Made by a program: the position numbers and the translations under genes. This document shows positions 6,835-45,647 of a stretch of 64,000 nucleotides of DNA, one piece after another; the stretch's first letter is position 1, and each line of letters begins with the position of its first letter. Where the stretch lies: contig JBBSCF010000008.1 in assembly GCA_038250545.1 (NCBI GenBank), positions 23,519 to 87,518 on the forward strand, written 5' to 3'. The notes beneath the pieces were generated by a model. That model searched no databases, was not told the origin of the DNA, and saw only the letters and a program-made list of their open reading frames with translations. The DNA comes from Candidatus Limnocylindrales bacterium (GTDB taxonomy: Bacteria; Chloroflexota; Limnocylindria; Limnocylindrales; CSP1-4).

Positions 6835-7827
6835 GTGCGACGGTATTTCGGCCGCAAGCTCCTGATCTATGCGCTGACGTTCTTCGTCGCCGCGACGATC
6901 GACTGGATGATCCCCCGCTTCATGCCGGGCGACCCCGTCCAGAGCATGCTCTCCCGGCGGCAGATCCCGCCGGAGGCGGTCCCGGACGTCATCGCCTACT
7001 ACAACCGGCTGTTCGGCCTCGACGTGCCGATCTGGCAGCAGTACCTCAACTTCTGGGGATCGCTGTTCCACGGTGATCTCGGCCGCAGCGTGTACCTCTC
7101 CGGCCGGCCGGTCGTGGACACGATCATGGCCGCCGTTCCCTACACGCTGGCGCTGCTCATCCCGGCCATCCTGCTGAGCTGGTGGGTGGGCAACTCGTTC
7201 GGCGCCATGGCCGCCCGCCGCAAGGTCCTCGACAACGCGATCCTGCCGATCGGGTACATCCTCACGGCAACCCCCTACATGTGGCTCGCGATCGTGATCG
7301 CCTGGGTCCTGGGCACCATCTTCCGGATCTTCCCGATCTCGGGCGGCTACGGCTACGCGCTCGAGCCCTCGCTGTCGATCGAGTTCGCCACCAGCCTGTT
7401 CTCGCACTGGGTCATGCCGTTCCTGTCGCTGTTCCTCGTCCAGCTGGGCGGGTGGGCGATCGGCATGCGCAACATGATCATCTACGAGCTCGACGCGGAC
7501 TATTCCCGGTACCTGGCCGCGCTCGGCGCGCCGTCCGGGCTCATCCGCCGGTATGCGTTTCGGAACGCGGTCCTGCCGCAGGTGACGGGCCTGGCCCTCC
7601 AGCTCGGCGTGGTCGTCGCCGGTGCCCTGGTCACGGAGATCGTGTTCTCGTACCCGGGCCTCGGGAAGCTGCTCCTCGCGGCGGTCCAGAACGAGGACTA
7701 CTTCCTGCTCCAGGGAATCTTCCTGTTCGTGATCGTCGGCGTCCTGGTCGCCAACTTCCTGGTCGACATCGCCTACGTGCTGCTCGATCCACGCACGCGC
7801 GTGGGCATGAGCGGGGGCACGGCATGA
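6835..7827 (+). CDS. ABC transporter permease (DppB/OppB-like)
   Basis: Six hydrophobic segments. Typical N-terminus MRRYFGRKLLIYALTFFVAATIDWMIPRFMPGDP. 330 aa. Confidence 0.9.
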   Translation: MRRYFGRKLLIYALTFFVAATIDWMIPRFMPGDPVQSMLSRRQIPPEAVPDVIAYYNRLFGLDVPIWQQYLNFWGSLFHGDLGRSVYLSGRPVVDTIMAAVPYTLALLIPAILLSWWVGNSFGAMAARRKVLDNAILPIGYILTATPYMWLAIVIAWVLGTIFRIFPISGGYGYALEPSLSIEFATSLFSHWVMPFLSLFLVQLGGWAIGMRNMIIYELDADYSRYLAALGAPSGLIRRYAFRNAVLPQVTGLALQLGVVVAGALVTEIVFSYPGLGKLLLAAVQNEDYFLLQGIFLFVIVGVLVANFLVDIAYVLLDPRTRVGMSGGTA

Positions 7828-8777
7828 CCACGTCGCGCACGCCCGCCTCGTCCGCGTCCGCTCCCGCACCCGTCGCTCCGGCCCCCGGGCCCGTGGGCAC
7901 CCCCGTGGCCAGGGCCGCCGGTGAGGGCGTCGGTCGCGGTCGGGAGATCCGCTACTTCGTCCTGCGCAGCCGCAAGGTCCTGATCTCGTCCGCCATCCTG
8001 CTCCTCTTCATCGCGCTGGCGGTCGTCGGGCCTCTCCTCCGGCCCGGCGACCCCAACGCCTTCACCGGGCCGATCGCCGAGGCACCCTCGGCCGAGTACT
8101 GGTTCGGCACGACGACCTTCGGCCAGGACGTGTTCGCGCAGTTCGTCAACGGCCTGGCCTCGACCTTCGTCATCGGCCTCGCCGGCGGCGGTCTGGCCGC
8201 GATCATCGGCGTGGTCATCGGCTTCGTGGCCGGCTACCGCGGCGGCTGGATCGACGAGATCCTCAGCGGCTTCACGAACGTGGTGCTGGTCATCCCGACG
8301 TTGGCCCTGCTGCTGGTCGTGACCGCCTTCCTCCAGGCGCGCGGCCTGCTGGTCGAGGCCGCCTTCATCGGGTTCACCTCGTGGCCGTGGGCCGCGCGCG
8401 CGATCCGGGCCCAGACGTTCTCGCTCAACGCGCGCGAGTTCGTCGACCTGGCGCGGATCACCGGGGTGCCGAGCCGGAAGGTGATCTTCAGCGAGATCGC
8501 CCCCAACATGAGCTCGTACCTGTTCATGACGTTCATCCTGATGTTCGGCGGCTCGATCCTCATCGCAGCGTCCCTGGACTTTATCGGCCTGGGGCCCACC
8601 GAGGGCGTGTCGCTCGGGCTGATGATGTACAACTCGGTCGCCTGGAGCGCGCTCCAGCTGGGGCTGTGGTGGTGGTTCCTGCCGCCGGGCATCGGCATCA
8701 CCGCGGTCGTCGGGGCGCTCTACGTGATGAACGTGGGCCTCGACGAGATCTTCAACCCCCGGCTGCGGGAGTCCTGA
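7824..8777 (+). CDS. ABC transporter permease (DppC/OppC-like)
   Basis: ATG at 7824 overlaps the upstream stop (ATGA). A low-complexity N-terminus is followed by a typical OppC core (FGTTTFGQDVFAQF..., WPWAARAIRAQTFSL). Confidence 0.85.
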   Translation: MTTSRTPASSASAPAPVAPAPGPVGTPVARAAGEGVGRGREIRYFVLRSRKVLISSAILLLFIALAVVGPLLRPGDPNAFTGPIAEAPSAEYWFGTTTFGQDVFAQFVNGLASTFVIGLAGGGLAAIIGVVIGFVAGYRGGWIDEILSGFTNVVLVIPTLALLLVVTAFLQARGLLVEAAFIGFTSWPWAARAIRAQTFSLNAREFVDLARITGVPSRKVIFSEIAPNMSSYLFMTFILMFGGSILIAASLDFIGLGPTEGVSLGLMMYNSVAWSALQLGLWWWFLPPGIGITAVVGALYVMNVGLDEIFNPRLRES

Positions 8778-35889: not shown

Positions 35890-36060
35890 GTGACCATGCC
35901 GCACGGGACCGTCATCGTCATCGGCGGGGCTGAGGACAAGGTCCGGGACCGGGTCATCCTCAGCCGGTTCGTCGCGCTCGCGGGCGGGCGGGACGCACGG
36001 ATCGCGGTCATCGCCACCGCGAGCTCCTTCGGCATGGAGGCCGGCGACCGGTATCCAGGG
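35890..36060 (+). pseudogene. Cyanophycinase (peptidase S51) N-terminal stump, ~55 codons
   Basis: GTVIVIGGAEDKVRDRVILSRFVALAGGRDARIAVIATASSFGMEAGDRY matches the cyanophycinase N-terminus. Similarity stops near 36055. The catalytic Ser/His region is absent, and a convergent GNAT gene occupies the space. Confidence 0.7.
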
Positions 36061-36125: not shown

Positions 36126-37013
36126 TCAGGCCCCGCCCCAGTCGAACGTACAGCGCTCGCCGTCGATCACCGGGCGGTAGCCGATCGCCTCGTAGATGCG
36201 GTTCGAGGTCGGGTTGGCCCGGTCCGTGTCGAGGAAGCAGGATGCGCGCCCGCCATCAAGCTCCGCCTGGCTCACGGCTGCCACCAGGGCCGAGGCGTAC
36301 CCGCGTCGCCGATGCTCCGGTGGCGTGTAGACGGACCCGATGCGCCGTCCGTTGGGGGTCACGTTCCCGGCGACGGCCATCGCCACCGGGACGCCGGCGG
36401 CCTCCCAGAGCCAGACGATCCGCACGGGGTCCGCGAGCCACCGCGCGAGCAGCGTCTCGGCCGGATCGCCGGCGGGCTCGTGGCCCAATGCCTCCGCCTG
36501 GAACGCGGCGACCCAGGCCGCGAGCAGGGAGGCGTCCCCGCTGCGTGCCACCCGGGGGCCGCCGACCGGCGGCGCCGATGGCGGGACCACGCGGTCGAGG
36601 CGGTAGGTCCGCGTGCGCAGGTCGACCTCGGCGGGCGGGCCGCCGGCCGCGCCCCACGCCGCCACGAACCGCCGCAGGACGTCGACGGGGCCCGCGACGC
36701 CCGATGGTCGCCGGCGCCTCGCGAGGGCATCGGCGGCGACCAGGTCGACCGCCGCCGGCCGCGCGGCCAGCGAGAGGACCAGGTCGTGCGGGGGCGTGCA
36801 TACCGCGACCAGGCCCACACCGGCGACGTCCCGCACGAGGGCGAGGTACGGGTCGCGGAACACCTCGGGCCGATCGCGCACGGCCCCGAGGAGGCCCAGC
36901 AGGAGGCTGTGCTCTGCCTCGCGGGCAACCAGGAAGGCGCCCGCCGCCTCCATGAGCTCGGCGCCCGAGGCGACGACCTCGAGGCGCAGCGACCCTCGCG
37001 CCGCTCCGCTCAT
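36126..37013 (-). CDS. GNAT family N-acetyltransferase (two-lobed, ~295 aa)
   Basis: Internal ATG of track ORF 36126..37316. C-terminal GNAT core VYTPPEHRRRGYASALVAAVS...NPTSNRIYEAIGY. Confidence 0.8.
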   Translation of the reverse strand: MSGAARGSLRLEVVASGAELMEAAGAFLVAREAEHSLLLGLLGAVRDRPEVFRDPYLALVRDVAGVGLVAVCTPPHDLVLSLAARPAAVDLVAADALARRRRPSGVAGPVDVLRRFVAAWGAAGGPPAEVDLRTRTYRLDRVVPPSAPPVGGPRVARSGDASLLAAWVAAFQAEALGHEPAGDPAETLLARWLADPVRIVWLWEAAGVPVAMAVAGNVTPNGRRIGSVYTPPEHRRRGYASALVAAVSQAELDGGRASCFLDTDRANPTSNRIYEAIGYRPVIDGERCTFDWGGA

Positions 37014-37146
37014 CCGATCCACCCTCCACGACCGCTGCACCTCCGCGCGGACCGCCATCCTATAGGCGGCCTGCGACGGGTGGCCAGCGGAACGGCGCCG
37101 CCCGCACCGCGGACACGCCGGGTCCCACGCAGTCGAGGAGGGGCCA

Positions 37147-40071
37147 GTGGCGCAGGCGGATCCGGGTACCCCGAAGCGATCGAGGACGACGCGGACGAAG
37201 GCCGCGGCCGACGCGTCGGGTGCCGCGACCGAGCCGACGGCCCCTGGGGCCACCCCCCGGCGACGCGCCAGCGACGCGAGCCCCGGCGGAATCCGCCCCG
37301 AGCCCACGCTCCGCATCCTCGAGACCCGTGTGCTGCGCGGCGCGAACTACTGGGCCAGGGAGCCGGTGATCCGCCAGGTCGTCGACCTTGGGCGTGCTGG
37401 AGGAGTTCCCCAGCAACAAGATCCCGGGTTTCGTGGACGCCCTGGTGGAGATCCTGCCCACGCTCGAGGATCACGCCTGCTCCCTCGGCCGTCGCGGCGG
37501 GTTCCTGACCCGCCTCCGCGACGGGACCTGGGCCGGGCACGTCGCCGAGCACATCGCGCTCGAGTTCCAGAACCTCGCCGGCACGGAGGTCCGTCACGGC
37601 AAGACCCGCGGCACGGGCGACTACGGCCGCTACCACGTCATCTTCGAGTACCGCGAGGAGCAGGTCGGCATCGAGGCCGGCAAGATGGCCGTGGCCCTCG
37701 TCAACCACCTCATCGCGCCGCACGACCCGGCCTACGAGTTCGACCTGGTCCCCGAGCTGGAGGGCCTGATCCGGCTGGCCGAGCGGCTCGCGTTCGGGCC
37801 GTCAACGCAGGCGCTCCTCGACGAGGCGGCCGGCCGCGACATCCCGTACATCCGCCTCGACCGCTACAGCCTCGTCCAGCTGGGCCAGGTCGTCCACCAG
37901 CAGCGCATCCGGGCCACCATGACCAGCCGCACGGGCGGCATCGCGGTGGACATTGCGTCGGACAAGAAGCTCACCAACCGCCTGCTCGACTCCGCCGGCC
38001 TCCCGGTGCCGCGCTCCGAGGTCGTCGAGACCGAGGACGAGGCCGTGGCCGCCGCCCGCCGGCTGGGTTACCCCTGCGTCATCAAGCCGCTCGACGGCAA
38101 CCACGGCCGCGGCGTGGCGCTCGACCTGCGCGACGAGGCCGCCGTCCCGGCCGCCTGGCCGGAGACCCTGGCCCAGAGCCGGCGCGGCGACGTCATCGTC
38201 GAGAGCTACATCACCGGCCGGGACTACCGCTGTCTCGTCATCGGCGGCAAGCTCGCCGCGGTCGCGGAGCGCGTCCCCGCGAGCGTGACGGGCGACGGCG
38301 TGAAGACGATCCGCGAGCTGGTCGAGATCACCAACGCGGACCCGCGCCGCGGCATCGGCCACGAGAAGGCCCTCACCCGGATCAAGCTCGACGCGAACGC
38401 CGAGGAGGTCCTCGAGGGCCAGGGCCACACGCCCGACTCGGTACCCGCCGAGGGCGCCTTCGTCAAGCTCGCGCTGACCGGCAACATGAGCACCGGCGGC
38501 ACGTCCATGGACCGGACGATGGAGGCCCACCCCGACAACGTCGAGATCGCGGAGACCGCCGCGCTCGTCGTGGGTCTCGACATCGCCGGCATCGACTTCA
38601 TCTGCCCCGACATCGAGGTTCCCGTCCGCGAGACCGGAGGCGGCATCGTGGAGGTCAACGCGGCCCCCGGGTTCCGGATGCACACCCACCCGACCGAGGG
38701 CGAGCCGCAGTACGTGGCCAAGCCCGTCATCGACCTGCTGTTCCCGCCCGGCACCCCGTCCCGCATCCCGATCGTCGCGGTGACCGGCACCAACGGCAAG
38801 ACGACGACCGTCCGGATGATCGCCCACATCCTCAAGCTGATGGGCAAGCGGGTCGGCATGACCTCCACGGACGGCATCGTCATCGCGGTCGGCTCATCAA
38901 GCGCGGCGACATGTCCGGGCCCAAGAGCGCGCAGATGGTGCTCCAGAACCCGACCGTGGACACCGCCGTGTTCGAGGTGGCCCGCGGCGGCATCCTGCGC
39001 GAGGGCCTGGGCTACGACCGCAACGACGTGGCTGTGGTCACCAACGTCACCGGCGACCACCTGGGCCTCGGCGGCATCGACACGGTGGGCCAGCTCGCGG
39101 GCGTCAAGGGCGTCCCGGTGGACGCGGTCCCGCGCTCGGGCACGGCGGTGCTCAACGCCGACGACCACCTCGTCTACCGGATGGGGCGCCACTGCGCCGG
39201 GCGTGTGGTCCTGTTCAGCATGGCCAAGGAGAAGGGCGAGGACGGGCGCGACCGCGTCGACGGGCATGCGTCCCGCGGCAACGCGGCGTTCTGCCTCGAG
39301 GACACGCCCGGTGGCGAGCTGATCGTCCTGCGCCACGGGCCGCGGAAGATGCCGGTCCTGTACACGCACCTCGTGCCGGCGACCTTCGGCGGCCGGGCGC
39401 GCATGAACGTGGCCAATGCCCTCGCCGCGGCCGCCGCGGCCTGGGGGATGGGGGCCCACCTGCACGACATCCGCCAGGGTCTCCGGACGTTCAGCACGTC
39501 CTTCTTCCAGGCGCCCGGCCGGCTCAACCTCGTCGAGGTCGCCGGGACGCGCGTCGTCATCGACTACTGCCACAACGTGGACGGCATGCGCCAGCTCGCC
39601 GACTTCGTCAACCGGATGATGGTCGACCCGCAGGCGCGGCCGGCCGCTGCCGGGGCGTCGGCGCCGCCGCGTGCCGGCCGGGCGATCGGCGTGATCGGCA
39701 TCCCGGGCGACCGGCGGGACCAGGACCAGCACGAGTACGGCGCCCTGGCGGCGACGGCCTTCGACGAGATCATCATCCGCGAGGACCGCAACCTGCGCGG
39801 CCGCGAGCCCGGCGAGACGGCGTCCAACGTGGTGGCCGGCATCCGCGCGGTGCGCGGCGAGGGCAGGGCTCGGACCACCAAGGTGGACAAGGTGCTCGAC
39901 GAGCCGGCGGCCGTGCGCGCGGCCCTGCGGCGGGCCGCCCCGGGCGACCTCGTCGTGGTCTGCGCCGACGACGCCGTGGACGTCTACCGCGAGGCCATGA
40001 AGCTGGGCGGGCGCACCCAGGGCGGCACGGCCTTCGCCGATCCGGGCGAGCTCGAGGCGCCGCTGGGATGA
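37147..40071 (+). pseudogene. cphA: Cyanophycin synthetase CphA1 (N, ATP-grasp G and Mur-ligase-like M domains) interrupted by two single-nucleotide frameshifts
   Basis: GAGGAGG RBS then GTG 37147. N domain LRILETRVLRGANYW...VVDLG in frame 1. VLEEFPSNKIPGF...KPLDGNHGRG...VTGTNGKTTT...TSTDGIVI in frame 2 (track ORF 37388..). GRLIKRGDMSGPKSAQ...to the stop back in frame 1. Shifts at ~37393 (+1) and ~38885-38887 (-1). Could be true mutations or assembly errors. Confidence 0.85.
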
Positions 40072-40679
40072 CCGTGGCCGGGCCCCGGGGCGACGACCTC
40101 GCGGCGGGGCTCGCCGAGCGAGACTTCACCGGGGTCGTGCTTGCCGTCGGGCCGGACGGGCTGCTGGCGGCGGCGACGCGGGGCGTCGCGGATCTGGCCA
40201 TGGGCCGGTTGATCACGGTCCGATCGCGGTTCGGCATCGCGTCCGCGGCGAAGCTGTTCACGGCGGTGACGATCGGGTACCTCGTCCCGCCGGGCGGCGA
40301 GCCGGGCGGGGTCTGGCGGTCCAACCTGTACGCGATCCCGGCCCGCGGCCGGCCCGACGGCGGTGCCTTCGCCCCCGCCGCGGACCTCGTGCGGTTCCTG
40401 GACGCGTTCCGCGAGGGGCGGCTGCTGGGCGCCGCTTGGCGGGACGAGATGGTGCGGCCGCGGGTCCGCGACGAGCGCGAGGAGGTCGACTACGGGCTGG
40501 CGTGGTGGCGGCAGGGTGAGGGTCGTGGACGCTGGGGGGGGCACCCGGGTGGCGATCCCGGGTACGTCGCGCAAGTGCGCTGGTACCCGGAGGCCGGCGT
40601 GCGGCTCATCGTGCTGGCGAACCGGTCGAACCGTGCCGGGTCGGCCGCCGCGCTCGCGGAGGCGCTGCTGGTCGGGTAG
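40068..40679 (+). CDS. Beta-lactamase-family serine hydrolase, abnormally short (probable internal deletion)
   Basis: ATGA overlap with the cphA stop. S-x-x-K present (FGIASAAKLF) and an HxG-like box (GGHPGG) near the C-terminus. Only 203 aa, and the central Tyr-x-Asn region is missing. Confidence 0.6.
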   Translation: MTVAGPRGDDLAAGLAERDFTGVVLAVGPDGLLAAATRGVADLAMGRLITVRSRFGIASAAKLFTAVTIGYLVPPGGEPGGVWRSNLYAIPARGRPDGGAFAPAADLVRFLDAFREGRLLGAAWRDEMVRPRVRDEREEVDYGLAWWRQGEGRGRWGGHPGGDPGYVAQVRWYPEAGVRLIVLANRSNRAGSAAALAEALLVG

Positions 40680-40711
40680 GTCCGGCCGGGAGCGGCAACC
40701 TCGAGGGTCGC

Positions 40712-42481
40712 TCAGCCGGTCTGCGACCGCGCCCGCCCTGCCAGCCGCGGTGCCAGGTCCCGCAGCTCCGCACCCACGTCGACGCTGTGCGCCCCCAGGC
40801 GCTCCAGCAGGGCGAAGACCTCGTCGCGGTCCTGGTGGCAGAACAGCACGATGACCCGCGGCGCGTCCTGCCCACCCGCGGCGGCGGCAGACCCGTCGGT
40901 GCGCATGAGCTCCGCCTCGAGCGCGCCGGCCTCCGTCTCGTACACCGGTGTCGTGGCCGGGTCGACGCCGCCCTCCGCGAGCCCCTCGCCGAGGAGCCGC
41001 ATGAGGTCGGCGCGGTCTCGCCCGCGCAGGTAGGCCAGGGCCTCCTTGACGACCACGCGCTGCGCCCGCTCGGCCGCGATCCGCCCGACGCCCCGCAGCG
41101 TGTCGTCGGGCCGGTCGCCCGCGGTGCCGACGATCGCCGTCACCGGGGCTGCGGGCCCGCCCGCGCCGCCCGCGAGCGCCGCCGCCACCTCGAGGATCGC
41201 CTCGGTGCCCACCTCGTTGTGCGCGAAGTCCACGATGACGGTCCGGCGCCCCAGGCGGAACAGGTTGAGCCGGCCCGGCGAGAGCTCCGCGGAGGGCTGG
41301 AAGTCGCGCAGGCCGTCGGCCACCTGCTCTCGGGTGGCGCCGATGGCCCGCGCCCCGCCCGCGGCCGCGAGGGCGTTCGCCACGTTGTGCCGGGCGAGGC
41401 CGCCCAGCGCAACGGGCAGGTCGGCCAGGTCCAGGATCGGGTGCGTCGCGGCCCCGTCCCACTCGACCAGGCGGCCGCCGTCGAGCACCCACGCCAGCCC
41501 GCCACCGCGGCGGTGGCGCGCGAGGACCGGCGATGCGCCCGGGTCCATCGAGAAGTAGGCGACCCGCGCGTGCACCCGCCGGGCAATGGCGGCGACCAGC
41601 GGGTCGTCCGCGTTGAGCACGACGAGCCCGTCGGGCTTCGTGATCCGGCAGACCGTGGCCTTGACCTCGGCCAGCTCGGGCAGCGTGTGGATTCCCTGGA
41701 GGTCGAGATGGTCCGAGGACACGTTCGTGAACACACTCGCCTCGTTGGACTCGTAGCCCATGCCGCGCAGGACGAGGCCACCGCGCGCCGTTTCGAGGAC
41801 CGCCACGTCCACGTCCGCCCGGCGCAGGACCGCGCCGGCACCACCCGGGCCAGTCCAGTCGCCGGTCTCGACCAGCCGCTCGTCCACGAGGATTCCGTCG
41901 CTGGTCGTCGTGCCGACGCGCCGCCCGGCGCGCAGCAGGATGTGGGTGATCAGGCGGGTGACGGTCGACTTCCCGTTCGTGCCGGTGACGGACACGATGG
42001 GCACCGTCCGGTCCGCGTCACGGATCCAGGCCGGTGGTGTGGCGCGGGCCTCCGTGATGCGCGTCTCCCAGGCCGCGACCTGGCGCGCCTGGGTGCCCGT
42101 GAGGCGCACGCGGCGGGCGGACGACACCGACCGGCCCGCGAGGTCAACGGCGGCCTCGGCGATGAGCCTGGCGCGCTCGGCGCCGGTCCACGGCCACGTG
42201 ATGACCCAGCGCCCCGCATCCGATGCCCGGTGCGCCTCCACGGGCCCGGCGTGCTCGCCGTGATCGCCGCGCAGGCGGCGGGTCCAGGCGACGATGTCGG
42301 TGACGGCGTCGGGCCACTCGCGGGCGGCGATCGGGCGGGCGAGATGGACCAGCGCACCGTCCGCGGGCGACCGCGAGCCGTGCCAGGCCCTCGTCCGCCC
42401 GACGGCCACCTCGACCTTGACCACCGGCGCCAGCCGGTAGACGTTCGGACCTTCGAGCAGCCGGATCTCCACGAGTCGCAC
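40712..42481 (-). CDS. Cyanophycin-synthetase-like ligase with N domain + Mur-ligase-like M domain but no ATP-grasp (G) domain
   Basis: GTG start. (M)RLVEIRLLEGPNVYR resembles the CphA N domain. From PIVSVTGTNGKSTV it is collinear with the CphA1 M domain of the neighbouring gene (TTSDGILVDERLVETGD, ETARGGLVLRG, VLNADDPLV, RHNVANALAA, PGRLNLF, DFAHN, GTAGDR). 589 aa, intact. Confidence 0.85.
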   Translation of the reverse strand: MRLVEIRLLEGPNVYRLAPVVKVEVAVGRTRAWHGSRSPADGALVHLARPIAAREWPDAVTDIVAWTRRLRGDHGEHAGPVEAHRASDAGRWVITWPWTGAERARLIAEAAVDLAGRSVSSARRVRLTGTQARQVAAWETRITEARATPPAWIRDADRTVPIVSVTGTNGKSTVTRLITHILLRAGRRVGTTTSDGILVDERLVETGDWTGPGGAGAVLRRADVDVAVLETARGGLVLRGMGYESNEASVFTNVSSDHLDLQGIHTLPELAEVKATVCRITKPDGLVVLNADDPLVAAIARRVHARVAYFSMDPGASPVLARHRRGGGLAWVLDGGRLVEWDGAATHPILDLADLPVALGGLARHNVANALAAAGGARAIGATREQVADGLRDFQPSAELSPGRLNLFRLGRRTVIVDFAHNEVGTEAILEVAAALAGGAGGPAAPVTAIVGTAGDRPDDTLRGVGRIAAERAQRVVVKEALAYLRGRDRADLMRLLGEGLAEGGVDPATTPVYETEAGALEAELMRTDGSAAAAGGQDAPRVIVLFCHQDRDEVFALLERLGAHSVDVGAELRDLAPRLAGRARSQTG

Positions 42482-42490
42482 GGTCCGGAA

Positions 42491-42496
42491 ATGCTA
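42491..42496 (-). promoter_or_regulatory. -10 box TAGCAT (minus strand) 9 nt upstream of the CphA-like GTG
   Basis: Reverse complement of ATGCTA. No Shine-Dalgarno in between. Confidence 0.4.
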
Positions 42497-42542
42497 CGCG
42501 AGCGAGGTCCGCCGGGAGGCTCCGTTGCGCGCCCGCCGTCGA

Positions 42543-42548
42543 TAGACT
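42543..42548 (+). promoter_or_regulatory. -10 box TAGACT 7 nt upstream of the M20 peptidase ATG (leaderless candidate)
   Basis: GATAGACTGGGCCGCATG. Confidence 0.5.
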
Positions 42549-42555
42549 GGGCCGC

Positions 42556-43806
42556 ATGGCATCCACCCCCGATCCCCTCGTCGCGCCCGAGGAGATCGCC
42601 GATCTGCGGGCGAGCATCGAGCGCGGCTACCCGTCCTACCTCGCCGACCTCGAGCGGCTCGTCAACACCGACTGCGGCAGCTACACGCGGGCGGGCGTCG
42701 ACGCGATCGGCCGCTGGACGGCCGAGCGGCTGCGGGCGTTGGGGTTCTCGGTCACGAGCCACGAGAACGACCAGGGCCTGGGCGAGACGGTGATCGGCGA
42801 GCTCCACGGGACAGACCCGGCCGGGCCCACGCTCCTGTGCATCGGGCACATGGACACGGTGTTCGACCCGGGCACCGCGGCCGAGCGGCCCTTCGCCATC
42901 CAGGGCGGTATCGCGACCGGCCCGGGCGTCACGGACATGAAGAGCGGGCTGCTCTCGGGCCTGCATGCGATCGGGGCGCTTCGCGAGGCGCTGGGCGGCG
43001 TGCCCATGGCGCGACTCGTCTTCGTGGCGAACCCCGACGAGGAGATCGGCTCGCCGGCCTCGACGTCCCACATCCGCCGCCTCGCCGCCGAATCGGACGC
43101 CTGCCTCGTGCTCGAGTGCGCGCGTGCGAACGGCGACATCGTCTCGTCGCGGAAGGGGTCGCTGGACCTCGTGATCGCCGTTCACGGGAAGGCGAGCCAT
43201 GCCGGCATCGAGCCCGAGAAGGGGCGTTCCGCCATCCTGGAGGCGGCGCGCATCACGACCGACCTCCACGCGCTCAACGGGCGCTGGCCGGGCGTGACGG
43301 TCAACGTGGGCGTCATCGAGGGCGGGACTCGCCCGAACGTCGTGGCGGATCGCTGTTCGATGGAGGTCGACGTGCGCGCCGTGACCCGCGAGGCCCTCGA
43401 GGTCGTCGAGGCGGCGATCGCCGAGATCCTCGTGCCCACGGCGGTTCCGGACGTGCGGGTGGAGCTCACCCAGAGCGCCCGCCACTGGCCGATGGAGAAG
43501 CTGGAGCGGTCCGGGCGGCTCGTCGACCATGCCGTGCGCCTGGCGTCGGACCTCGGGTTCGCGCTGCGTGACGCCGCGACGGGTGGCGCCTCGGACGCCA
43601 ACACGACGGCCGGCATGGGCGTGCCGACGATCGACGGCCTCGGCCCGATCGGCGGGCTGGACCACTCGCCGGGCGAGTACCTCGAGGTCGCCTCCATCGT
43701 CCCGCGGACGCTCCTGCTCGCGGCGCTCATCGCCGCGATCGGGCGAGACCCGGAGGTCGGGCGCTGGCGCGGCGAGCGGCTGGCGAGGCGGGGCGCGGCG
43801 CGGTGA
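42556..43806 (+). CDS. M20 family metallopeptidase (carboxypeptidase G2-like)
   Basis: GHMDTV, GVTDMKSG and PDEEIGS metal/catalytic motifs, a dimerisation insert, and a C-terminal H in GLDHSPGEY. 416 aa. Confidence 0.88.
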   Translation: MASTPDPLVAPEEIADLRASIERGYPSYLADLERLVNTDCGSYTRAGVDAIGRWTAERLRALGFSVTSHENDQGLGETVIGELHGTDPAGPTLLCIGHMDTVFDPGTAAERPFAIQGGIATGPGVTDMKSGLLSGLHAIGALREALGGVPMARLVFVANPDEEIGSPASTSHIRRLAAESDACLVLECARANGDIVSSRKGSLDLVIAVHGKASHAGIEPEKGRSAILEAARITTDLHALNGRWPGVTVNVGVIEGGTRPNVVADRCSMEVDVRAVTREALEVVEAAIAEILVPTAVPDVRVELTQSARHWPMEKLERSGRLVDHAVRLASDLGFALRDAATGGASDANTTAGMGVPTIDGLGPIGGLDHSPGEYLEVASIVPRTLLLAALIAAIGRDPEVGRWRGERLARRGAAR

Positions 43807-44189
43807 GCCGGCGGCACGTGTCGGGCCGTGGACCGTGGGAGGCGATGGGCGGCTACTCCCGCGCGCTCGCCGTGGGCGACGCGTGCTCCGTGGCAGGCAC
43901 CACGGACGCCGGGCCCGATGGGGAATCGCTCCACCCGGGTGATGCGGCGGGCCAGGCGCGGGCGGCATTCGCGATCGTCGAGGGGGCGCTCGGCGAGGCC
44001 GGGTTCGCCCTCGAGGACGTCGTCCGGACGCGGATGTACCTCGTGGATCCCGCCGACGCCGACGCCGTGGTCGCGGTCCACGGCGAGCTGTTCCGGCACG
44101 TGCGGCCGGCGGCGACGCTCGTGGTGGTCGCGGGTCTGATGCGGCCGAGCCTCCTCGTCGAGGTGGAGGCCGAGGCCCGCCGCGGCTGA
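43803..44189 (+). CDS. RidA/YjgF/Rid family protein
   Basis: GTGA overlap with the M20 stop. YSRALAVGD..., QARAAFAIVEGALGEAG, DVVRTRMYL and LVEVEAEA are typical Rid-fold motifs. Confidence 0.8.
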   Translation: MSRRHVSGRGPWEAMGGYSRALAVGDACSVAGTTDAGPDGESLHPGDAAGQARAAFAIVEGALGEAGFALEDVVRTRMYLVDPADADAVVAVHGELFRHVRPAATLVVVAGLMRPSLLVEVEAEARRG

Positions 44190-45374: not shown

Positions 45375-45647
45375 CTAGCGCAGGAAGGTCTTCGCGCAGG
45401 TCCCGTCGCAGACGACGTAGACGGCGTGCTTCTCGATCGCGTAGCCGGCCGCGTGGAGCAGGCCCGGGCAGCCGGCGGTCGGGCACTTGTAGACCCACCA
45501 GCGCTCGTTGGTGTCGAGTGGGGTCGTCTCGGCCTTGAGCTTGTCGGCGAGGCCCTCACGACCCTCGGTCAGCGTGGCGACGCGGGCAGCCCGGTCCGCC
45601 TCCGTCTCGCTGGTATAGGGGTAGTTCTGGCCGACGTTCGAGGTCAC
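45375..45647 (-). CDS. Small cytoplasmic protein with C-terminal four-Cys zinc-ribbon-like motif (90 aa)
   Basis: GGAGG RBS then GTG 45647. ...WWVYKCPTAGCPGLLHAAGYAIEKHAVYVVCDGTCAKTF. Confidence 0.6.
   Translation of the reverse strand: MTSNVGQNYPYTSETEADRAARVATLTEGREGLADKLKAETTPLDTNERWWVYKCPTAGCPGLLHAAGYAIEKHAVYVVCDGTCAKTFLR

Follow-up and report, generated by a model that had tools for sequence, protein, structure and literature searches.

A conserved cyanophycin synthetase-like protein of Chloroflexota with an N domain joined directly to an M domain

A stretch of 64,000 nucleotides from a Candidatus Limnocylindrales genome (GenBank assembly GCA_038250545.1, contig JBBSCF010000008.1, positions 23,519 to 87,518; hereafter the window) carries a full-length minus-strand open reading frame (ORF) at 40712..42481, beside a disrupted gene for cyanophycin synthetase 1 (cphA1). 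The product of this ORF is a CphA-like N domain joined directly to a CphA-type M domain, without the ATP-grasp domain (G domain), and is called the N+M protein here. The architecture was found to be that of a conserved family and not a local truncation. CphA1, which has N, G and M domains, makes the nitrogen-storage polymer cyanophycin from aspartate and arginine, and CphA2, which has N and G domains and a dead M domain, re-polymerises dipeptides. To our knowledge, the known enzymes of cyanophycin biosynthesis come in these two forms.

Results

Architecture of the N+M protein

The ORF begins with a GTG codon and encodes 589 amino acids (aa), starting VRLVEIRLLEGPNVYR. Since positions 38986-43298 of the window were 99.98% identical, without gaps, to an independently assembled Logan contig (L087, from SRR19962010), the sequence of the gene is reliable. 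The protein aligned over its full length and in a single frame with its 120 best homologs. The composition of about 73% G+C, together with the best homologs, placed the window in the Chloroflexota, class Limnocylindria. The motifs of the translation were, in order, GTNGKS (residues 167-172), TTSDGILVDERLVETGD (192-208), ETARGG (230-235), NADDPLV (290-296), HNVANALAA (365-373), PGRLN (402-406), DFAHN (418-422) and GTAGDR (452-457).

No ATP-grasp family was detected in the product by the Pfam scan, while the adjacent cphA1 fragment matched Cyanophycin_syn and at least seven ATP-grasp families. Positions 1-474 of TIGR02068, the cyanophycin synthetase model, had no match in the product in the NCBIfam scan. 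In the AlphaFold models the last helix of the N domain (residues 129-147) was separated from the P-loop strand (162-166) by a linker of about 15 residues, and a cryptic G domain was therefore excluded.

The M domain is of the cyanophycin synthetase type

Both Pfam domains of the Mur ligase superfamily were found above their gathering thresholds, Mur_ligase_M at residues 165-375 (80.6 bits, cutoff 24) and Mur_ligase_C at residues 403-498 (29.5 bits, cutoff 28.4), and with the P-loop they place the protein in this superfamily. TIGR02068 matched over its positions 475-837 only, with 374.5 bits, and thus did not reach its cutoff of 850 bits, which is set for the whole protein; on this model the M domain of the N+M protein scored about as high as a genuine CphA1 M domain. 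The best Mur model in NCBIfam was MurE, with 106 bits against a cutoff of 373. All top matches among PDB sequences were CphA1 (194-263 bits, with 7lg5 at 263, over residues 159-504 or more), while MurE-type sequences reached at most 66 bits. Foldseek searches with the AlphaFold model likewise returned CphA1 first (7lgj, E 4e-36), with MurE at about 1e-19. Because CphA models and structures outscored MurE in the NCBIfam, PDB and Foldseek comparisons, the M domain was assigned to the CphA type and not to the generic Mur ligases.

The M domain was collinear with that of the adjacent cphA1, with 60% identity in the P-loop segment and 36% across the other 302 residues. Its identity was 36% to Limnocylindria CphA1, 43% to Synechocystis CphA1 and 25% to MurE. 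The first-pass annotation of this DNA, made from the sequence letters, had listed the motifs given above, described the M domain as collinear with the adjacent cphA1, noted no ATP-grasp domain and expected a grouping with CphA rather than with MurC-F. All four points agreed with the present results, the last one also in the tree described below.

Active-site residues and family-specific changes

All known catalytic residues of the M site are present in the N+M protein, and a functional ATP site and D-H pair are predicted from the alignment. N169, K171, S172, T192/T193, E230, R404 and H421 aligned with N497, K499, T500, T522, E558, R731 and H748 of TeCphA1, which have ATP- or Mg-binding roles, R731 and H748 touching the ATP phosphates (PMC9427784). 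In SuCphA1 the double mutation D585A H586A renders the M domain inactive (PMC9262961); the equivalent pair of the N+M protein, D257-H258, was invariant in a family alignment of 74 Limnocylindria sequences. K274 is also among the catalytic residues retained. Most of these residues were at least 85% conserved in both clades of the family (see below) and in CphA1, and the remainder were invariant in the Limnocylindria alignment. The position of S172 is occupied by Thr in the second clade (clade B) and in CphA1.

The M domains of 239 N+M proteins and 60 CphA1 were aligned to find positions that distinguish the two groups. Among these, three residues conserved in CphA1 were replaced in N+M proteins, namely S542 by Gly (G214), E607 by Arg (R279) and P774 by Ala (A454). 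E607 contacts the polymer bound on the N domain of SuCphA1 (PMC9262961). A further change was found in a motif of the M lid, which reads [RK]-E-D-x-[ND]-L-R-G-R in CphA1 and K-[ED]-T-x-x-Y-L-R-G-R in N+M proteins. The latter have an additional, invariant Tyr and lack the conserved Asp. This Asp, D801 of CphA1, is replaced by Thr or Ala, and the window protein has Ala at the position where the family has Thr. The motif aligned with the DNPR motif of Escherichia coli MurE, with which that enzyme holds the diaminopimelate to be added. The N+M protein may, by analogy, accept an amino acid other than arginine.

The N domain

Sequence searches did not connect the N-terminal region to CphA. Pfam gave nothing for residues 1-160 at E values up to 10, and PF18921 (Cyanophycin_syn) did not detect the N domain of N+M proteins. 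A profile built from 26 N-domain sequences gave only chance matches among PDB sequences (tyrosine phosphatases, E 0.3 or worse). The same profile gave 149 matches among 1.84 billion representative sequences, with no CphA1 among them; the long matches that were retrieved were all N+M proteins or frameshifted read-throughs of these, and the others were mostly short fragments. As methods based on sequence alone failed to link the N domain to CphA, profile-profile alignment by hhalign and structure prediction were needed.

When 235 N+M N-termini were aligned with 65 CphA1 N domains by hhalign, 119 collinear columns were paired (Prob 79%, E 1.7e-5), covering the GPNxY loop, the beta-hairpin and helix alpha-a. 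An AlphaFold model of the N domain, made with an alignment that included the Thermomicrobiales clade, had a predicted local distance difference test score (pLDDT) of 83 and a predicted template modelling score (pTM) of 0.80. The top 12 PDB matches of this model in Foldseek were exclusively N domains of CphA1 and CphA2, with template modelling (TM) scores of 0.40-0.62 (0.56-0.62 for most CphA1 entries), followed by noise. No Mur match was found among the top 50 structural matches, and identification of the N-terminal region as a Mur-ligase domain 1 was rejected. At the level of fold and profile, these results show residues 1 to about 155 to be a diverged CphA N domain.

The hydrophobic GPNxY loop was invariant across the N+M family; in CphA1 this loop lies against the M domain (PMC9262961). 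The motif Cx19HxxEH was absent from the window protein, which has just a non-conserved H-G-E-H at residues 74-77, and from both N+M clades, while the window's own cphA1 retains it. This motif is the endo-cyanophycinase or primer-generating site of the CphA1 N domain and occurs in 83% of CphA1 (PMC9262961). The first-pass annotation had described a CphA-type N domain followed by Mur_ligase_M and Mur_ligase_C and had expected Pfam to detect all three with no ATP-grasp hit. The fold and profile matches support the first statement apart from the missing Cx19HxxEH motif, and the Pfam scan behaved as expected for the Mur-ligase and ATP-grasp families, whereas the model for the CphA N-terminal domain stayed silent.

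The mean net charge of the N domain was +7.5 in the Limnocylindria clade, -12.1 in its Thermomicrobiales sister clade and -7.5 in CphA1. This reversal hints that the two N+M clades may bind differently charged partners.

Distribution, phylogeny and selection

The 120 best N+M homologs were 514-624 aa long (nearly all 565-620) and 69-100% identical to the window protein. Their database names are inconsistent, either 'Mur ligase family protein [Candidatus Limnocylindrales]' or 'cyanophycin synthetase'. In a scan of one genome per GTDB species, the N domain was encoded in at least 272 genomes. Among the best 80 of these, all but two were Chloroflexota, mostly labelled Limnocylindrales, uncultured Chloroflexia or Chloroflexota; the two exceptions were labelled Verrucomicrobiia and Sulfomarinibacteraceae. 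A second clade of N+M proteins of about 545-560 aa (clade B), which was reached via a distant match (P0262), was found in Thermomicrobiales/Chloroflexia, and its N domain matched that of the window's clade (clade A) with an hhalign Prob of 99.2%.

Frameshifted read-throughs from error-prone Limnocylindria assemblies were observed to populate the protein libraries (P0142, P0161, P0173, P0207, P0219 and others). Such representatives consist of nonsense rich in Arg, Pro and Gly around short genuine segments.

A tree of M domains was constructed by neighbour-joining from 391 columns with 300 bootstraps, using 21 N+M proteins, eight CphA1 (from Synechocystis, Trichodesmium, Tatumella, Acinetobacter and four Chloroflexota) and MurC-F of E. 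coli. N+M proteins and CphA1 were grouped against MurC-F with 94% bootstrap support, and CphA1 was monophyletic with 93%. N+M clade A (Limnocylindria) was recovered with 100% and clade B (Thermomicrobiales/Chloroflexia) with 96%, while the union of the two received 45% and was not resolved. In this tree the M domain of N+M proteins forms an old sister lineage outside the sampled CphA1 crown group; the method is a distance method with a small taxon sample, and faster evolution of N+M proteins could also shift them towards the base. A recent origin of the N+M gene by deletion from the neighbouring cphA1 was rejected on the basis of the M-domain identity of only 36% and the monophyly of CphA1 at 93%.

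The ratio of nonsynonymous to synonymous substitution rates (dN/dS), calculated pairwise between the window gene and seven relatives, was 0.17-0.25 in both the N and the M domain. The N+M gene is under purifying selection.

Gene neighbourhood in Chloroflexota

The flanks of related loci (L001 and following) were examined over up to 10 kb, and absence of cphA1 or cphB refers to this flank. In Limnocylindria the order was GGT, further genes, RidA and M20 peptidase, then the divergent N+M gene, and then cphA1 and cphB convergent with it. cphA1-cphB lay tail-to-tail downstream of the N+M gene in 58 of the 62 Limnocylindria loci with a flank of at least 4 kb. The linkage to the M20 gene was tighter than that to cphA1, since an M20 gene lay upstream in all Limnocylindria loci (72/72, within L001-L082). 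In the window it is divergent from the N+M gene across 74 bp, and the RidA/L-PSP family gene follows directly at its 3' end (Table 1). N-acyl amino acids are the substrates that M20 enzymes cleave, and this class of compounds includes beta-Asp-Arg. The M20 enzyme could be the missing cyanophycin dipeptidase of Limnocylindria genomes, or a partner of the N+M protein that removes side chains.

The flanks in clade B were unrelated to those in Limnocylindria and contained ParB and often an Rce1-like/CPBP gene. In 4 of the 7 distinct clade B loci (L083, L084, L089 and L090) the N+M gene was again tail-to-tail with cphA1-cphB, and in the other three (L086, L091 and L092) it was not beside cph genes. 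A gene for an Rce1-like/CPBP intramembrane protease lay directly upstream on the same strand in 5 of the 7 loci (L086, L089, L090, L091 and L092), at about positions 7000-7960 (+) beside a divergent ParB-like gene, regardless of whether cphA1-cphB followed downstream. cphA1 and cphB were the only neighbours common to both classes and are therefore the main evidence for a functional link. The first-pass annotation had called for a survey of the architecture and its neighbours across genomes, and the outcome was a recurrent family usually found beside cphA1-cphB. L026 also lacked cphA1, but its N+M match ended after about 247 residues.

State of the cyanophycin cluster in the window

The cphA1 gene of the window is split into three frame pieces: frame 1 encodes residues 1-89 and 575-966, and frame 2 encodes residues 75-588. 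The breaks result from one extra base near 37388 and one missing base near 38885. The gene keeps Cx19HxxEH, the ATP-grasp domain and the M motifs. Owing to the high G+C content, frame 1 contains no stop for 974 codons and runs through both frameshifts. Automated gene calling would therefore give an apparently complete 'cyanophycin synthetase' in which the central 500 residues, with all of the G domain, are translated in the wrong frame and make no sense. The loss is recent, since dN/dS of the window cphA1 against that of L001 was still 0.19. The two single-base indels are possibly assembly errors; contig L087 ends 60-100 bp before the second one. That the N+M gene is intact while cphA1 is disrupted, as the first-pass annotation had pointed out, is correct as an observation, but it carries little evolutionary weight because relatives have an intact cphA1 and the disruption is recent or possibly an assembly error.

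Only the first 53 of 277 codons of cphB (cyanophycinase) were left. The remainder of its place is filled by an ORF with a C-terminal GNAT acetyltransferase domain, which extends over the start of cphA1; the true start of this gene probably lies downstream of the ORF start. No GNAT gene was found between cphB and cphA1 in the relatives L001 and L002. The beta-lactamase-family gene, which was found in only a minority of related loci, lacks about residues 80-216 of a 353-aa relative by an in-frame internal deletion, and an identical ORF of 203 aa is present in contig L087. Ten other neighbours in the window were compared by tblastn and all were intact. The cyanophycin cluster of the window looks genuinely decayed.

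A conserved ORF of 90 aa was observed at window positions 45378-45647 (-), between the GGT and AzlC genes. It was 81% identical to the copy in L001 (6800-7072) and had no NCBIfam match. Scans of the window for tRNA genes and Rfam families gave no matches.

Table 1. Coordinates of the N+M gene, its domains and motifs, and neighbouring genes in the window
Feature	Position	Strand	Basis
N+M gene (CphA-like N domain + CphA-type Mur-ligase domain)	40712..42481	-	ORF, homologs, contig L087, dN/dS
N-terminal domain, residues 1-155 (diverged CphA N-domain fold, Cx19HxxEH absent, GPNxY loop kept)	42017..42481	-	AlphaFold, Foldseek, hhalign
M core (ATP-binding Mur-ligase middle domain), residues 159-395	41297..42007	-	Pfam, TIGR02068, CphA1 7lg5, Foldseek 7lgj
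P-loop GTNGKS, residues 167-172 (K171, S172 equivalent to TeCphA1 K499, T500)	41966..41983	-	translation, alignment, PMC9427784
D257-H258 (equivalent to SuCphA1 D585-H586)	41708..41713	-	alignment, translation, PMC9262961
M lid (Mur-ligase C-terminal domain), residues 403-565, with R404 and H421	40787..41275	-	Pfam Mur_ligase_C, alignment
M-lid motif KEALAYLRGR, residues 479-488	41018..41047	-	alignment of 239 N+M with 60 CphA1; separate alignment with E. coli MurE
cphA1 (cyanophycin synthetase 1), disrupted	37147..40071	+	tblastn with intact 969-aa CphA1 of L001, nucleotide alignment, Pfam, NCBIfam
cphB (cyanophycinase) remnant	35896..36054	+	tblastn; TIGR02069 positions 1-49 only
ORF with C-terminal GNAT acetyltransferase domain	36126..37316	-	Pfam Acetyltransf_1, FR47 at residues 280-392
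beta-lactamase-family gene, in-frame internal deletion	40068..40679	+	tblastn, partial Pfam match
M20 metallopeptidase, glutamate-carboxypeptidase/CPG2-like	42556..43806	+	Pfam; NF004788 283 bits, below 349-bit cutoff
RidA/L-PSP family gene	43803..44189	+	Pfam, synteny

Discussion

Proposed function and alternative explanations

With middling confidence we propose that the N+M protein is a free-standing M-site module, an ATP-dependent amino-acid ligase that would act in trans on the beta-carboxylate of Asp in cyanophycin or poly-Asp. A chain with a terminal or internal Asp bearing a free beta-carboxylate would be bound between the N domain and the M core, as the polymer at the M site of CphA1 sits between these two parts (PMC9427784). 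ATP would phosphorylate the beta-carboxylate, and the alpha-amine of an amino acid would be attached to the activated carboxylate as an isopeptide. The enzyme would work beside the CphA1 and cyanophycinase normally encoded next to it; lacking an ATP-grasp domain, it cannot lengthen the Asp backbone. Sequence, fold and gene neighbourhood make cyanophycin or poly-Asp the most likely substrate and ligation the most likely reaction. The decoration or re-arginylation of poly-Asp or cyanophycin suggested in the first-pass annotation is likewise hypothetical.

Several observations weigh against this proposal. The N+M gene was intact where cphA1-cphB are absent or decayed nearby, namely in the window and in L033, L050, L067, L086, L091 and L092, and such persistence argues against strict dependence on CphA1, although these genomes may hold another copy elsewhere. 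The adjacency of the paralogs could be a relic of duplication instead of a sign of functional coupling. CphA1 has an active M domain of its own, which leaves the need for a second one unexplained. The changes S542 to Gly, E607 to Arg, P774 to Ala and D801 to Thr or Ala, with the inserted Tyr, differ from CphA1, and the basic N domain of the window's clade may mean that its polymer or amino-acid specificity differs as well. Furthermore, the packing of the N domain on the M domain in the full-length AlphaFold model is tentative, as that model was made from a shallow alignment (70% identity or more) and its N domain had pLDDT values of 40-80.

Much of this would also fit an active Mur-type ligase that has diverged to a carboxylate unrelated to cyanophycin, such as a peptide, polymer or metabolite, with the position beside cphA1 as an ancient duplication relic. 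We consider this rather unlikely. It would account for the intact N+M genes at loci without cphA1-cphB, for the branching outside the CphA1 crown group, for the changes in the DNPR-equivalent motif and at the polymer-contacting E607, and for the reversed charge of the N domain in the window's clade; in addition, the tightest neighbours are lineage-specific genes other than cph, M20 in Limnocylindria and Rce1-like/CPBP in clade B. However, across two classes with otherwise unrelated flanks only cphA1 and cphB are shared, and a simple tandem duplication would not leave the two genes tail-to-tail. Purifying selection keeps the N domain, which is known for its part in the handling of cyanophycin, and the M domain scores like that of a genuine CphA1 on the CphA model. 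Some of the same features may instead point to a variant of our proposal that we regard as doubtful, in which the N+M protein has an amino-acid or polymer specificity unlike that of CphA1 and, in Limnocylindria, forms with the invariably adjacent M20 enzyme a 'charge/discharge' pair on a poly-Asp backbone. The N+M protein would add side-chain amino acids and the M20 enzyme, as a hydrolase of the N-acyl-amino-acid type, would remove them without depolymerising the backbone. This variant is suggested by the loss of the conserved Asp and the added Tyr in the DNPR-equivalent motif and by the basic N domain of the window's clade. If true, this would add a new way of storing nitrogen in a cyanophycin-like form and a natural means of producing cyanophycins with amino acids other than Arg.

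The protein might also be a synthetase of small molecules that joins Arg to free Asp or to a short peptide ending in Asp, yielding beta-Asp-Arg or short primers for CphA1. The chemistry would be identical to that of the M site, the gene is linked to cphA1, and the minimal primer of CphA1 is (beta-Asp-Arg)-Asp, with priming being rate-limiting (PMC9262961). Nevertheless, we think this improbable, as the co-resident Chloroflexota CphA1 keeps the Cx19HxxEH primer-generating site, so that priming should not be limiting, as synthesis of a dipeptide does not need an N domain that handles polymer, and as the motif putatively recognising Arg no longer has its conserved Asp. A role without catalysis, as a partner or regulator that binds polymer or synthetase in support of CphA1 or of cyanophycin granules but ligates nothing, would have a precedent in CphA2 for CphA-family domains that persist in a non-catalytic role (PMC10273328) and would fit the adjacent cphA1. 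It is made very unlikely by the conservation, in both clades or in the Limnocylindria alignment, of the catalytic and ATP-binding residues (P-loop, Mg ligands, D257-H258, R404 and H421) and by a dN/dS of about 0.2 in the M domain. The decay of the neighbouring cph genes in the window, and the many database relatives that are frameshifted pieces from error-prone assemblies, could lead one to take the gene for a decaying or mis-assembled fragment of a cphA1 duplicate. This explanation is hardly credible and was refuted: one uninterrupted frame covers the whole gene both in the window and in the independent contig, the architecture of about 545-620 aa recurs in hundreds of species, and the family shows purifying selection and an ancient divergence.

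Significance and comparison with known systems

No description of an N+M protein was found by full-text searching or in the main structural and bioinformatic papers on cyanophycin, within a literature that did not cover most subscription journals. To that extent the architecture is without an assigned function, and the refuting case named in the first-pass annotation, of a function already known, did not arise. The sequences are in databases under inconsistent names, and the architecture itself appears to be unstudied. The family is abundant in soil Chloroflexota, with 272 or more species genomes in a single clade, and its inconsistent naming may inflate metagenomic counts of cyanophycin producers. 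If the ligase proposed above is right, it would imply a step of cyanophycin metabolism outside current schemes, such as the attachment of side chains in trans, repair of the backbone or its renewed decoration, or the use of another amino acid, and it would provide a small separable enzyme for biotechnological tailoring of side chains on poly-Asp polymers.

With MurC-F, and MurE in particular, the N+M protein shares the Mur middle and C-terminal domains, the P-loop, the Mg ligands and the GR and H motifs, and it has Lys at the position that is carbamylated in MurD-F. By analogy the chemistry would also be shared, with formation of an acyl phosphate followed by an amide bond. Identity to Mur ligases was only 19-25%, however, and the scores were far below every NCBIfam Mur cutoff. 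The UDP-binding N-terminal domain of Mur ligases had no Pfam match in the N+M protein, and no Mur domain 1 was found among the top 50 structural matches. MurT, PgsB/CapB and FolC are, like the N+M protein, stand-alone enzymes with a Mur-ligase fold, and theirs act on carboxylates that are not nucleotide-linked. Membership of these families was rejected by the scores of 35 bits against a cutoff of 800 for MurT, 24 against 223 for PgsB and 46 against 163 for FolC. Pfam found no MurT_C (DUF1727) in the N+M protein, and no GATase_3 (GatD) gene was found among the listed neighbours of the related loci or of the window gene; one related genome (L091) has a separate genuine MurT-GatD pair. By these comparisons the N+M protein belongs to the Mur-ligase superfamily but to no named Mur, MurT, PgsB or FolC family.

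The closest relatives are the cyanophycin synthetases, although the lack of a G domain keeps the N+M protein out of both CphA1 and CphA2. With CphA1 (7LG5, 7LGQ, 7WAE and others) it has in common the fold of the N domain with its GPNxY loop and a collinear M domain of 36-43% identity with all catalytic residues of the M site, and it is usually encoded beside a genuine cphA1 and cphB. In contrast to CphA1, it wholly lacks the G domain of roughly 320 residues as well as Cx19HxxEH and a match to PF18921, and its M lid is altered. CphA2 (7TA5, 8FXH) is likewise a reduced member of the CphA family with an N domain, which matches structurally, and one catalytic domain. The reduction is the opposite one: in CphA2 the G domain is active and the M domain is truncated and inactive (PMC10273328), whereas in the N+M protein the G domain is missing and the M domain is complete and apparently active. 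The description 'reciprocal truncation' in the first-pass annotation therefore fits the domain content relative to CphA2, but the gene is not a truncated copy of the local cphA1 and represents an old, separate lineage. If N+M proteins are indeed catalytically intact and conserved, they would join CphA1 and CphA2 as the third member of the family, with CphA2 as their mirror image.

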